Shown here piece after piece: positions 23,223 through 27,447 of a stretch of DNA of 64,000 nucleotides. This DNA comes from Promethearchaeota archaeon (GTDB taxonomy: Archaea; Asgardarchaeota; Hermodarchaeia; Hermodarchaeales; Hermodarchaeaceae). Within the stretch, counting starts at the first letter, position 1; each line of letters begins with the position of its first letter. The position numbers and the translations under genes are program-made. The notes beneath the pieces are model-generated. The model was not told the DNA's origin, did no database searches, and worked only from the letters and a program-made list of their open reading frames with translations. The stretch lies in the NCBI GenBank assembly GCA_048939625.1, contig JBHLPH010000003.1:1-64000 (forward strand). Direction: 5' to 3'.

Positions 23223-24434
23223 TTAGACTATGCGAAGTTTCCGTAATTCCTGCATCAGAGTAATCAGTTTGCGGTCCTTGGTCGCCATAGCTTTCATGAA
23301 AATCTTGACCTTTTTCCCTGCGGTCATTCGCACGATTGATTCGCCGGTCACAATTTCCGCCAGCTTATCTAGAGTCGCATCTTCTGTTTCTAGGATGAGA
23401 TCTCGGAGTTTGAGAGATTGATCGAATTCGCCCCCATACAGTTTACGCCATTCTTTCTCATATTTGTGTAAGTGCTGAGCACTAATTGTCCCTTTTTGGA
23501 TGCATTCAGCGGCAACCCGACCAGCGATGCTTCCACAGACCATAGCATAACCCATACCTCCACCGGTGATTGGGTGAATTTGACCAGCTGCATCTCCAAC
23601 TAATAGCGCGCCATCAACTACGTTCGTTTTATTCGGTCCGCAAACGGGTAATGCCCCCACTCTGGTTTCGATGACCCGAGCCTTACTTAATTGCTGTTTT
23701 GCGACTTTATGGTGTTTTAAGAAATGATCCAGATACTCCTTGGCGGTTTTGGTTTCTACGCCTCCACCGATTCCGATTCCGACATTGGCGCGCCTTGCAC
23801 CTTTAGGAAAAATCCAGATATATCCTCGCGGAGACAGTTCACTTCCAAGGAGGAATTCCATTAAATCTGTGACTTCAAGGTCACAGTTAGCCATCTCATA
23901 ACCAAAACAGGAGTCGATATCATCCGGTTTGTAGGCTTTGCGAAGACCTGTTAACCGGGCGATTTGGCTGTTCACGCCATCAGCACCGATGACAACTTGC
24001 GCCTTGAGAGTTTTTCGTTTCCCATCATGTCGTACAACGACACCAGTTACAGTTCCGTTTGATCGGGTAATGTCTAATACTCGCGCACCTAGTAAGCTTT
24101 CAGCTCCGGCTTCTGTGGCTCGAGCAAAAAGCTCCTTGTCAAAGATACGTCTGTCAATCGTGAATCCACTGGCTTCCTCGGTAGCATAATCAACAGATAG
24201 TTGTCCAGGGCTGTAGAGACGAAAACCACGAAGTGGTGCCCGAATTGACTCCTCAGGGATATCAATTTCTGCAACACCTGGTCCTGTTTTCCCAATAGCC
24301 TCACCACATTGGACAGGAATACCGACGTTTGTTTTTCTATCTACGATGGTTACTTTTACTCCTGCACGGAGAGCACCGACAGCAGTGGATGAACCTGCAG
24401 GTCCAGCACCAACCACAATTATATGATCTGACAA
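23223..24434 (-). CDS. Geranylgeranyl reductase (digeranylgeranylglycerophospholipid reductase)
   Basis: GAGPAG, PVQCGEA, GYIWIFPKG, GDAAG..HPITGGG. Confidence 0.92.
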   Translation of the reverse strand: MSDHIIVVGAGPAGSSTAVGALRAGVKVTIVDRKTNVGIPVQCGEAIGKTGPGVAEIDIPEESIRAPLRGFRLYSPGQLSVDYATEEASGFTIDRRIFDKELFARATEAGAESLLGARVLDITRSNGTVTGVVVRHDGKRKTLKAQVVIGADGVNSQIARLTGLRKAYKPDDIDSCFGYEMANCDLEVTDLMEFLLGSELSPRGYIWIFPKGARRANVGIGIGGGVETKTAKEYLDHFLKHHKVAKQQLSKARVIETRVGALPVCGPNKTNVVDGALLVGDAAGQIHPITGGGMGYAMVCGSIAGRVAAECIQKGTISAQHLHKYEKEWRKLYGGEFDQSLKLRDLILETEDATLDKLAEIVTGESIVRMTAGKKVKIFMKAMATKDRKLITLMQELRKLRIV

Positions 24435-24465
24435 GTTTTCATTCTCCTTGGATTCGTAATTATTG

Positions 24466-24687
24466 TTAACGGTCTATGAGAGTGATAGCTCCTACAGGAC
24501 ATACTTTTACGCAAGTACCACATCCTGTGCAAGTCGCAGGTATAACTATAATATAGCTCTCTGTGACTTCAATGGCATTAACGGGGCACACTGTGGCACA
24601 GGCTTGGCATACCCCGCAGAGTTCACCATCAACGTCAGCGAGTTTTTTTGTAGTTTTTTTCCTAGATGCGGATGAGGTAGGAGACAT
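24466..24687 (-). CDS. 2[4Fe-4S] ferredoxin
   Basis: CGVCQACATVCP and CTGCGTCVKVCP, directly upstream of GGR. Confidence 0.9.
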   Translation of the reverse strand: MSPTSSASRKKTTKKLADVDGELCGVCQACATVCPVNAIEVTESYIIVIPATCTGCGTCVKVCPVGAITLIDR

Positions 24688-24747
24688 CTTATTAGCATCC
24701 TCAGAATTCTTAGGGAGAACACGGTAGGTCAAGCTTTTTGAGCCTTT

Positions 24748-25671
24748 CTACTGTTTGCCTTGTTTTGCACTCGTGAAAATGAGGTATGCCCCTTGTGGTG
24801 GGATAATACCGTGTTCTGTGATTAAGGCATCGATGTGTTCATGTCCAGTCACATCAAAAAGAGGATTGCGAATTTTAATTTTAGGATTAATTTCACTACT
24901 TGGAACGACTTGTTCTGGATTTCCCTCTTCTAACGTGATTAGTCTTCCTAAGAGCGTTTCGTGAGAGAACTTGTAGCTTCCCACAGCAATAAGTACACGA
25001 ACCCGTGCACCATGGCATAATTCAGCAAGTGTTGCAGTTCCCACCTTGGAGACAATGGCGCCATTAGCGGCGATTGCCTCACCTCCTGCTAAGAGAACAT
25101 CGATATCTGATAGGAAAATACGGGCCGCAAAATCGGTAACCAGAGTAACAGGAATCCCTAACTCGGCAACTTCAGTAGCAAGCAGACGACCCTCCAAATC
25201 AGGACGACTTTCAGCAACAAAGACCCCAATTTCTTTGCCCTGTTCAACGACTTTTTGTAAGATTGCCAGTACTGTTGTGCTTCGGCATAGCGTTAGGATG
25301 CGATCTCCAGACCGGATACGTTTCGAACCGATTTCACCGATTTGTTGTTTCGCTTGTGCAATTCGTGTAACGAACTCATCACAAGCATCCCTTATACTGT
25401 GTCGCATCTCTTTCAATGTCTTCTTTTCATAGAACGCATTCTGAGCCGCAGCTTCTATAAGATCAAGGCAATTATGAAGAGCCGCTGAGGTTTGACGGGC
25501 TTCGCGGAGATCGTAAGCAGCTGTTTTTATTTGATTTAGGAGGGCCTTTGTAGATTTGGTTTTAGTTTTCAGTGTTAAATCCTTTAGAGCTGAAGCAGCT
25601 GCGATAGCCGTTCCATCTGCACTGGCGATTTCATATGATTTGAGTTTCTTCACGAGCCAGTCAAGCTTCAA
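24748..25671 (-). CDS. eIF2B alpha/beta/delta-family paralogue (degenerate R15P isomerase-like)
   Basis: ESRPDLEG and RNPLFDVT are retained. The RGA motif is lost and GAD becomes GGE. Likely TTG start at 25671 after GGAGG. Confidence 0.85.
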   Translation of the reverse strand: MKLDWLVKKLKSYEIASADGTAIAAASALKDLTLKTKTKSTKALLNQIKTAAYDLREARQTSAALHNCLDLIEAAAQNAFYEKKTLKEMRHSIRDACDEFVTRIAQAKQQIGEIGSKRIRSGDRILTLCRSTTVLAILQKVVEQGKEIGVFVAESRPDLEGRLLATEVAELGIPVTLVTDFAARIFLSDIDVLLAGGEAIAANGAIVSKVGTATLAELCHGARVRVLIAVGSYKFSHETLLGRLITLEEGNPEQVVPSSEINPKIKIRNPLFDVTGHEHIDALITEHGIIPPQGAYLIFTSAKQGKQ

Positions 25672-25735
25672 ACTATAACGCCTCCATAACAGCATTAATA
25701 CCTTGATGGCGTATTAAATTGCTCGGCGAACGGAA

Positions 25736-26725
25736 ATGGCCCTTATTCCTCAACAAACACAAAAAATCGCGGAAGATATTCGGACGATGCGTACACGAGG
25801 TGCAGGTCGAATAGCCCGTGCTGCAGCAAAGGGCTTGGTAACCGCCACTCAAGAATCAAAAGCGAAACGAATTCCTGCGCTTCTTCGAGATGTAGCATTA
25901 GCCGCTCAATTATTATACGAGACACGACCCTCTGCCGTTTCCCTACCTAACGCCCTACGGTACTATTATACTCGATTACTCACTCAGTCAGAGAAGGTAA
26001 AGGGAATCATTGAACTTAAAGCGATAGGACAAAAAATTGGACATGCTTTCATTGAAATGTCTAATAATGCGGTCAAAACTATTGGTCAGATTGGTTCGCG
26101 GTTGATTCAAAATGGGGATATCATATTCACCTACTGTAATAGTGCCACGGCCTTTGGCGTTTTAGAAACCGCGTATAAAATGGGAAAGGAGTTCACAGTG
26201 TATGTCCCTGAAACTCGTCCGAGATATCAAGGACATATTACTGCAACATGGTTAGATAAGGCTGGTATTCCCTGTTCTCTAATTACTGATAATTCGATTC
26301 GATTTCTAATTGCACGATCGGATAAGGTGTTTGTGGGGGCAGATGCAATTACAGCTAATGGTGCAGTTGTAAATAAGATAGGCACTAGTTTGGTTGCCTT
26401 GGCGGCAGATGAAGCGCGACTTGACTTCTTTGTTGCCGCAGAAAGTTACAAATTCAGCCCAGCTACAATGGCAGGCGAATTGATTGAAATTGAGGAACGT
26501 GACATAACTGAAGTTGTTTCAAAAGAGAAACTTGCTAGCTGGAACCATGTAAGTGTACGAAACCCAGCATTTGATGTAACCCCACCAGAATATATCGATG
26601 CCATTATTACAGAACAGGGAGTCATCCCCCCGCAAGGCGCAATTGCGATTCTCTTTAGGGAATTTGGCTGGTATTCAATAGAACAGGCTTTACCTTGGGA
26701 GCTTTATCTGAAGAAAAGCAAATGA
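25736..26725 (+). CDS. Ribose-1,5-bisphosphate isomerase
   Basis: MRTRGAGRIA, TRPSAVSLPNA, TYCNS, GADAITANGAVVNKIGT, RNPAFDVTP. Confidence 0.92.
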   Translation: MALIPQQTQKIAEDIRTMRTRGAGRIARAAAKGLVTATQESKAKRIPALLRDVALAAQLLYETRPSAVSLPNALRYYYTRLLTQSEKVKGIIELKAIGQKIGHAFIEMSNNAVKTIGQIGSRLIQNGDIIFTYCNSATAFGVLETAYKMGKEFTVYVPETRPRYQGHITATWLDKAGIPCSLITDNSIRFLIARSDKVFVGADAITANGAVVNKIGTSLVALAADEARLDFFVAAESYKFSPATMAGELIEIEERDITEVVSKEKLASWNHVSVRNPAFDVTPPEYIDAIITEQGVIPPQGAIAILFREFGWYSIEQALPWELYLKKSK

Positions 26726-26748: not shown

Positions 26749-27447
26749 CTATTCTTTATCAAGGGTACGAATTATTTTGCGCCATTCTTTGATTCGTGAT
26801 TCAGGAATTCCAGTAAGCAAGGCGAGATCGCGTGGGTTTTCTGTTTTTAGATTTTCGAGCGATTCAACGCCTAATTCTTTGAATTGTTTGACATCTGTTC
26901 GAGTAATTTCTGGGAGATCCTTGAGGTCCTTGAGTGCGGGTTCCTTGGCTTTTTCTGCACGGGCGGCTTTTGCCTTCTCTCGTTCATAGCGTTTTGCTGT
27001 ATCAACTAACTTTTCAGCACGGTTTCGCTTAATATCAGTCAACCGAGAAATCCGGCGAGGAGAAGTTGTAGCCAATTCGTGAATGCTCCGAATACCACCT
27101 TCCAAAAGTGTCTCGGCAACCTTCTTAGTAATACCAGTTAAGTTTGTTAAATCAGTTTCAATGGGCTCGACCTTTGGTTTGGATTTCTTGGGTTTAGGCT
27201 TCTCGGTGGCAGGTTTACGCTTAGGGGCTTTTGCGGTTTTTTCAAGTTTCTTAATCCGTTTAATAAAATCTTGGAGGAGTTTCACGTTTTCTGGGTGATG
27301 CGTTTTTCGCCTACTATCAATTGGAATAGCCATCCAACGTGCATCAGCTAGCCCGATACCTGCCTCTTTGAGTTCTTGGAGACTAAATCCCCGACCCTGA
27401 CGGGGTGCACCAGTTTGGGGAGCATGGATTTCTGGTCGGAATGCCAA
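26749..27447 (-). CDS. rpl13e: Ribosomal protein L13e fused to two helix-hairpin-helix modules
   Basis: RQGRGFSLQELKEAGI...IDSRRKT..ENV N-terminus, followed by two HhH-like repeats. Confidence 0.85.
   Translation of the reverse strand: MAFRPEIHAPQTGAPRQGRGFSLQELKEAGIGLADARWMAIPIDSRRKTHHPENVKLLQDFIKRIKKLEKTAKAPKRKPATEKPKPKKSKPKVEPIETDLTNLTGITKKVAETLLEGGIRSIHELATTSPRRISRLTDIKRNRAEKLVDTAKRYEREKAKAARAEKAKEPALKDLKDLPEITRTDVKQFKELGVESLENLKTENPRDLALLTGIPESRIKEWRKIIRTLDKE

Follow-up and report, generated by a model that had tools for sequence, protein, structure and literature searches.

A divergent pair of isomerase-family genes

We analyzed a 64,000-nucleotide window, positions 1 to 64,000 of contig JBHLPH010000003.1 in assembly GCA_048939625.1, from a Promethearchaeota archaeon of the family Hermodarchaeaceae. 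In it, two genes of the IF-2B family, here called copy A and copy B, are arranged head to head and are separated by a short gap that contains a perfect inverted repeat. The arrangement is real and conserved. The features of the locus are as follows:

24748-25695, minus strand: copy B, an R15Pi-like paralogue of 315 amino acids with a rebuilt 1-phosphate and catalytic pocket (assigned by PF01008 and the residue map)
25695-25717, between the starts of A and B: perfect inverted repeat TTAATAC-N9-GTATTAA (supported by its count in the window and by comparison with other loci)
25736-26725, plus strand: copy A, a canonical ribose-1,5-bisphosphate isomerase (R15Pi) of 329 amino acids (assigned by PF01008, TIGR00511 and the residue map)

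With the longest open reading frames, the two genes diverge from a gap of 40 bp. The gap becomes 64 bp if copy B starts at the TTG codon at 25671, the start implied by many B orthologues of 307 amino acids; this is probably the true start of copy B, which would then also encode 307 amino acids. The initial annotation, made from the sequence alone, had described two genes in the eIF2B-alpha/beta/delta family diverging from a gap of 40-65 bp, and the reading frames and PF01008 matches agree with it.

Both proteins match PF01008, the IF-2B family, above its cut-off of 22.4 bits (A, 275.8 bits, E-value 5e-82; B, 244 bits, E-value 2e-72), and they are 38% identical to each other. Against TIGR00511, the equivalog model for R15Pi with a cut-off of 314.1 bits, copy A passes at 369.4 bits and copy B fails at 270.8 bits. 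Both fall below the 279-bit cut-off of the MtnA model TIGR00512 (A, 198.5 bits; B, 131.9 bits), and copy B reaches only 122.9 bits on the aIF2B model NF006210, whose cut-off is 339 bits and on which a genuine Thermococcus aIF2B scores 516.8 bits. In a Protein Data Bank (PDB) search, the top matches of copy A were the R15Pi of Pyrococcus horikoshii (PhR15Pi, 5yfj; 318 bits) and that of Thermococcus kodakarensis (TkR15Pi, 3a11), and these enzymes are also the nearest solved relatives of copy B (210 bits). The genome encodes a third IF-2B-family paralogue, which is MtnA-like and lies on a different contig. An Rfam search of the 64-kb window gave no match.

The roles of individual residues were taken from the PhR15Pi structures (PMC5789824), mapped through HMMER alignments and a family alignment, and are given in P. 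horikoshii numbering. Copy A carries the motifs RGAG, TYCNS and GADAI. All of its 1-phosphate ligands are present (Arg22, Arg65, Gln166 and Lys215), as are the 5-phosphate ligands Ser137 and Lys240, the glycines at Gly23-Gly25, the sugar ligands Asp204, Asn214 and Lys215, and the catalytic pair Cys135/Asp204. The RGA motif, the catalytic Cys in TYCNS and the Asp in GADAI, which the initial annotation had assigned to the plus-strand gene, were all read in copy A, and by its sequence copy A is a canonical R15Pi. At the AMP-activator site, copy A has Leu in place of Arg124 and an Asp at position 231.

Copy B reads ASAD, TLCRS and GGEAIAANGAIVSKVGT at the corresponding motifs. Its substitutions are Arg22 to Ala, Gly25 to Asp, Gln166 to Glu, Asp204 to Glu and Asn214 to Ser, and it retains Cys135, Arg65, Ser137, Lys215 and Lys240. 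Two of the four 1-phosphate ligands are kept (Ala, Arg, Glu and Lys stand at Arg22, Arg65, Gln166 and Lys215), both 5-phosphate ligands are present as in copy A, and the catalytic pair is incomplete, with Cys135 in place and Glu instead of Asp204. The loss of the RGA motif from the minus-strand gene had been noticed before and holds (ASAD, with Arg22 replaced by Ala); the accompanying implication that the catalytic Cys was gone does not, as TLCRS keeps Cys135. The AMP-activator site of copy B is complete (Arg124, Arg190, Arg229, Asn209 and Asp290). In PhR15Pi this site is built by three protomers, with Arg124, Arg229 and Asp290 supplied by the first chain, Asn209 by the second and Arg190 by the third (PMC5789824).

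The inverted repeat occurs once in the window, where 0.01 occurrences are expected, and it is exactly conserved between A and B in 21 Hermodarchaeal loci, some of which are duplicate fetches of one genome. Its left arm overlaps the first ATG of copy B. It is likely a back-to-back pair of TATA-like promoter elements and/or an operator, which would give co-regulated divergent transcripts.

Conservation and distribution of the pair

We surveyed 150 Asgard genomes and additionally scanned species-representative genomes. Proteins of the B-like clade are distinguished by the loss of Arg22 and by Glu in place of Gln166 and Asp204, with the 5-phosphate, sugar and AMP-site residues kept. The head-to-head pair was present in 13 of the 14 other genomes of the genus, in all three Atabeyarchaeia, of which two are closed chromosomes, and in one Sifarchaeum, so the arrangement is not a product of chance. 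A B-like gene also occurred in one Baldrarchaeon, and in the remaining Asgard families sampled the query found canonical or MtnA-like copies only.

In metagenome-assembled genomes (MAGs) of Bathyarchaeia and Thermoprotei, the B-like gene lies immediately upstream of the canonical gene on the same strand and frequently overlaps it. Overlapping tandems were also found elsewhere, with an overlap of 17 nt in a Thermofilaceae genome and of 10 nt in one MAG of unstated lineage. The tandem loci from the scan of Bathyarchaeia and Thermoprotei MAGs are:

L045, L049, L065, L075, L082, L083, L085, L103 and L107

The initial annotation had placed the pair as an intermediate in an Asgard lineage. This placement is not supported: B-like proteins encoded next to a canonical gene extend to Bathyarchaeia and Thermofilaceae/Thermoprotei, so the pair is not an Asgard invention.

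Among the fetched loci, a canonical copy lies no more than 1.5 kb from the B-like gene in 40 of 49 cases. For five of the nine leftover genes there is a simple account: copy A was mis-classed in two, it was cut by the contig end in two, and one locus (L073) ends after B. A 2.4 kb contig carries two more, which leaves L047 and L062 as possible genuine exceptions. R15Pi and MtnA are encoded in each of the three Thermococcales genomes that were searched, and aIF2B in two of them; a fourth IF-2B-family copy, and thus a B-like candidate, was absent from all three.

With MtnA as the root, a tree of 90 sequences showed the B-like proteins as one clade (support of 91-93 in the Shimodaira-Hasegawa-like approximate likelihood-ratio test) nested in the R15Pi radiation. 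Within this clade, the Hermodarchaeal, Atabeyarchaeial and Sifarchaeal copies grouped with some Bathyarchaeial ones in a subclade with 99% support. The paired canonical copies grouped in a Bathyarchaeia/Asgard canonical clade (95). These groupings indicate that the duplication is old, and the A and B genes appear from the tree to have travelled together.

The sequences of copy B and its orthologues carry the marks of sustained constraint. In comparisons with unsaturated synonymous sites, the ratio of nonsynonymous to synonymous substitution rates (dN/dS) lay at 0.04-0.075 in B and at 0.025-0.05 in A. Orthologues of B from the genus share 74-88% identity with the B of the window, those of A 76-94% with its A, and the two sets diverge at similar rates. 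Approximately 50 database proteins are 68-97% identical to copy B; the next tier lies at 45-50%, and canonical enzymes reach at most 42%. In 15 B-like proteins drawn from Asgard and TACK archaea, Glu168, Glu206, Ser139, Lys242, Arg192, Arg231 and Asp289 are invariant, and Arg126 and Arg67 are nearly so (P0001 numbering). Since the substituted residues Glu168 and Glu206 are invariant across phyla, they represent a conserved new state and not decay. One could still take copy B for a duplicate in decay that serves no function itself, given that its TIGR00511 score misses the cut-off and canonical motifs are gone. However, the reading frame is intact in all B orthologues, dN/dS is low, the substituted residues do not vary, and the clade is old and widespread. 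As judged from this conservation, decay is already refuted for practical purposes, and we assign it a negligible probability.

We also observed two B-like proteins (L045:3983-4915 and L093:3923-4870) that are without both the catalytic Cys and the catalytic Asp and yet score 320-326 bits on TIGR00511, above its cut-off of 314. Annotation pipelines therefore name such proteins as active R15P isomerase.

A putative two-subunit isomerase

Several lines of evidence bear on how the two proteins may work together. In paired canonical copies, Arg124 and/or Arg229 of the AMP-activator site is missing at 37 of 40 loci (11 of 14 non-redundant representatives), and the replacements vary by lineage. Among unpaired canonical copies with adequate flanks, none of 37 lacks either residue (none of 18 representatives), and B-like proteins almost always keep both. 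This complementary loss is consistent with one subunit carrying out catalysis and the other binding the activator.

We predicted the structure of A together with B from alignments of 15 rows per chain, in three runs and with three controls. The heterodimer model scored 0.83 in all three runs, a mark met by 58 of 80 solved complexes and by 2 of 110 mismatched pairs, and the best control scored 0.00. The runs share at least 97% of their contacts, with a partner pLDDT (predicted local distance difference test) of at least 87. The predicted contacts (A residues 156-191, 215-226 and 252-280) correspond to the C-terminal-domain dimer interface of PhR15Pi (PMC5789824).

The pathway to which copy A would contribute is also encoded. 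An AMP phosphorylase gene (TIGR03327, 676 bits) lies on the contig of the pair itself at 69126-70613, approximately 43 kb away and just past the window, and the genome carries two RuBisCO large-subunit genes. Together these genes place copy A in a complete AMP/pentose-bisphosphate route.

The make-up of the two genes, the states of their residues, their conservation and adjacency, and the presence of the pathway genes were observed; from these we infer a physical assembly of A and B, its stoichiometry, the catalytic loss of B and a ligand for it. We consider it fairly probable that the pair encodes a two-subunit R15P isomerase in which A is catalytic and B is non-catalytic, with a ligand-sensing or structural role. 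In such a system, A would be the working isomerase in a route from AMP phosphorylase through R15Pi to RuBisCO. B would be an old, maintained paralogue that no longer binds the 1-phosphate in the manner of the enzyme (Arg22 lost; Gln166 and Asp204 replaced by Glu) and would keep the 5-phosphate and sugar ligands together with the residues of the inter-subunit AMP-activator site. Both would be expressed from the shared, symmetric divergent promoter region and would join at the usual C-terminal-domain dimer interface to form a hetero-oligomer in which A and B probably alternate around a hexamer. Within it, A would provide catalysis, and B would provide structure and the sensing of a ligand, such as AMP or another nucleoside monophosphate (NMP) or a sugar phosphate. 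Overlapping tandem B-like and canonical genes in other archaea are as expected of coupled subunits. The proposal of the initial annotation that the two genes encode co-expressed subunits of a heteromer thus has circumstantial support, from adjacency across phyla, overlapping tandems, purifying selection on B, complementary site loss and the heterodimer model.

Several points weigh against a two-subunit enzyme. The association between pairing and AMP-site loss comprises only 3-5 independent contrasts (sign test, p of approximately 0.5) and so lacks statistical proof, and the AMP site is intact in three paired canonical copies (L058, L082 and L093). The heterodimer score may echo the R15Pi homodimers already solved, and a pass in complex prediction is in any case expected for paralogues of a homo-oligomer. 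In addition, Cys135 is present in copy B of this genus, and a Glu might in principle serve as acid/base in the place of Asp, so that B may have residual or altered catalysis.

This last point leads to the main rival explanation, that B works on its own as an active isomerase whose substrate has changed, and is tied to A by the pathway only. The substrate would be a ribose or ribulose derivative with a 5-phosphate and without a 1-phosphate. The B proteins of Hermodarchaeia and Atabeyarchaeia keep Cys135, the sugar ligand Lys215 and the 5-phosphate ligands Ser137 and Lys240; the change from Asp204 to Glu is conservative, and B is under strong purifying selection. However, position 135 is Gly or Ser in sister lineages of the clade in which Glu166 and Glu204 are fixed, which indicates that the Cys is not required for the common role of the B-like family. 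The C135S and D204N mutants of PhR15Pi are inactive (PMC5789824). Moreover, all known MtnA and R15Pi chemistry uses a 1-phosphate held by Arg22 and Gln166, both of which B lacks, and overlapping tandem genes suit subunits better than two separate enzymes. We consider an independently active B unlikely, although among the alternatives it deserves the most attention.

If the two-subunit isomerase is real, it would differ from the characterized enzymes of its family. The R15Pi proteins of T. kodakarensis (TK0185; PDB 3A11 and 3VM6) and P. horikoshii (PH0208; 5YFJ) share fold and family with A and B. Like A, they carry every substrate-binding and catalytic residue, and the pathway partners of A are also present in the Hermodarchaeal genome; with B, they share the 5-phosphate, sugar and AMP-site residues. 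The characterized Thermococcales enzymes are single-gene homohexamers, whereas the Hermodarchaeal system has two genes, of which B has a rebuilt pocket and A is without AMP-site residues. A known case that resembles the proposed system in principle only is plant PDX1.2/PDX1, in which an inactive paralogue co-assembles with and modulates an active one; its fold and pathway are unrelated, and the assembly of A and B is a prediction. In Haloferax, three other IF-2B-family members, none of them a B-like/canonical pair, formed no heteromeric complex (PMC8576121).

The searchable literature yielded no account of R15P isomerase as a two-gene or heteromeric enzyme. To our knowledge, R15P isomerase is known only as a single-gene, AMP-activated homohexamer. 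A widespread two-gene form, with catalysis in one paralogue and the activator site in the other, would alter both the annotation of the archaeal AMP/pentose-bisphosphate pathway and the view of its regulation.

Kinship with eIF2B and aIF2B, and neighboring genes

The pair is also relevant to the origin of eIF2B, for which a step from a homo-oligomeric sugar-phosphate enzyme to a hetero-oligomer of ligand-sensing, non-catalytic paralogues has been proposed (PMC4787765, PMC8187479); A and B offer a living, testable analogue of this step. The alpha, beta and delta subunits of eIF2B (PDB 6CAJ, 6I3M and 5B04) have the same fold as A and B and are non-catalytic paralogues that form a heterohexamer. 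As in copy B, the pocket of eIF2B-alpha keeps the 5-phosphate and sugar ligands and has lost the 1-phosphate ligands, and it binds sugar phosphates (PMC5789824; PMC8187479). Unlike the A/B pair, eIF2B contains no catalytic paralogue, and it binds eIF2 and the gamma and epsilon subunits, the latter two not found in archaea (PMC6412873). The archaeal aIF2B (PH0440, PDB 1VB5; NF006210) is, like B, a catalytically degenerate member of the IF-2B family and lies near the B-like proteins in one tree. It belongs to a different, shorter clade, however, and is not located beside an R15Pi gene in the Thermococcus genomes searched.

For comparison with the eukaryotic subunits, vertebrate eIF2B-alpha records were found with a 78-residue human eIF2B-alpha query, which matched hamster alpha at 99%. 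From one vertebrate record, 150 diverse eIF2B-alpha representatives were gathered, and all sequences analyzed were database records. Of the eukaryotic subunits, the trees covered eIF2B-alpha only, and they included aIF2B from Thermococcus genomes. A search with copy A for longer proteins, aimed at eIF2B-delta, returned only RuBisCO-isomerase and MtnA-kinase fusions, and its sole fungal match was MtnA.

Profile comparisons gave mixed signals. On PDB chains, a B-like profile exceeded a matched canonical profile by 10-19 bits in 9 of the 11 eukaryotic chains (alpha, beta and delta of eIF2B) and fell short of it by approximately 170 bits on R15Pi and approximately 70 bits on MtnA. With a hidden Markov model (HMM) of eIF2B-alpha, the median scores were 194 bits for canonical, 179 for B-like, 151 for aIF2B and 109 for MtnA proteins, and the profile-profile scores from hhalign were equal (368.7 vs 368.5). 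At the level of single residues, eIF2B-alpha has Glu at the Asp204 position, as B-like proteins do, and Ala or Gly at position 135 (PMC5789824); aIF2B has Glu at the Gln166 position and Ser at the Cys135 position, as do many B-like proteins. These shared states could be due to common descent or to parallel loss.

A quick tree of 88 rows placed eIF2B-alpha and aIF2B within the B-like group. A constrained alternative surpassed it by 28 log-likelihood (lnL) units, and the quick tree was not relied on. For a more careful tree, 11 active-site columns were dropped from an alignment of 59 rows, and the model was LG+C20+F+G4. In this tree, the B-like proteins (96/70) were sister to a group of an odd Asgard clade, aIF2B and eIF2B-alpha (95/93), and the joint clade (95/95) lay inside the R15Pi radiation. 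In the approximately unbiased (AU) test, a tree holding canonical and B-like proteins together was 1.6 lnL units better (p = 0.53). The initial annotation had suggested a kinship with eIF2B that a phylogeny should reveal; the careful tree speaks for it, and the AU test, the equal hhalign scores and the preference of the alpha HMM for canonical proteins do not. In our view, the pair parallels the origin of eIF2B, and a role as its ancestor is possible but unproven. That the B-like proteins, as non-catalytic partners in a two-subunit isomerase of both Asgard and Thermoproteota lineages, are sisters of aIF2B and the eIF2B regulatory subunits, so that the eIF2B core would go back to a regulatory subunit within a heteromeric metabolic enzyme, is a tentative idea that we regard as doubtful. 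Such a relationship would bear directly on the origin of eIF2B, whose core would then not derive directly from a homohexameric enzyme.

A stronger version of this kinship is that B is a translation-linked regulator of the proto-eIF2B or aIF2B kind, which binds aIF2-alpha and couples sugar-phosphate levels to initiation. The Glu at the Asp204 position common to B-like proteins and eIF2B-alpha, the replacement of Cys135 in lineages other than the Hermodarchaeal one, the higher B-like profile scores on eIF2B chains and the careful tree that unites aIF2B and eIF2B-alpha with the B-like proteins all point in this direction; in addition, the account in PMC4787765 cites Dev et al. 2009 for binding of aIF2-alpha by Thermococcales aIF2B. 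However, the constant neighbor of B is a metabolic enzyme and not a translation gene. The AU test expresses no preference for joining B-like proteins with aIF2B and eIF2B-alpha, the larger sequence set favors the alternative by 28 units, hhalign does not discriminate, the alpha HMM ranks canonical above B-like proteins, and copy B reaches 123 bits on NF006210 against a cut-off of 339. We consider this role very unlikely for B.

The odd Asgard clade in the careful tree is a separate group of IF-2B proteins, represented by L032:1516-2436 (plus strand, genome G014) and L033:1483-2412 (plus strand, genome G020). These proteins have Gln at the Arg22 position and Glu at the Asn209 position, keep Cys135, Gln166 and Asp204, and score 302-308 bits on TIGR00511, just below the cut-off. 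As they join aIF2B and eIF2B-alpha in that tree (95/93), the eIF2B lineage may have a nearer Asgard relative in them than in copy B.

The genes that flank the pair are as follows:

23223-24732, minus strand: small 2x[4Fe-4S] ferredoxin and a flavoprotein of the geranylgeranyl-reductase family, downstream of copy B with spacings of 15 and 31 bp
26749-27447, minus strand: ribosomal protein L13e core fused to helix-hairpin-helix domains (PF01294 and PF14520), converging on copy A

The order of ferredoxin and geranylgeranyl reductase after B is kept in all Hermodarchaeal loci and not in the other lineages that bear the pair. This synteny is confined to the genus and is therefore uninformative about the function of the pair. 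Separately, two proteins in our data set (P0121 and P0122; 734-757 amino acids) combine RuBisCO large-subunit domains and an IF-2B/R15Pi domain in one polypeptide, fusing two steps of the AMP pathway; one of these RuBisCO-R15Pi fusions comes from a Gottesmanbacteria genome of the candidate phyla radiation (CPR).

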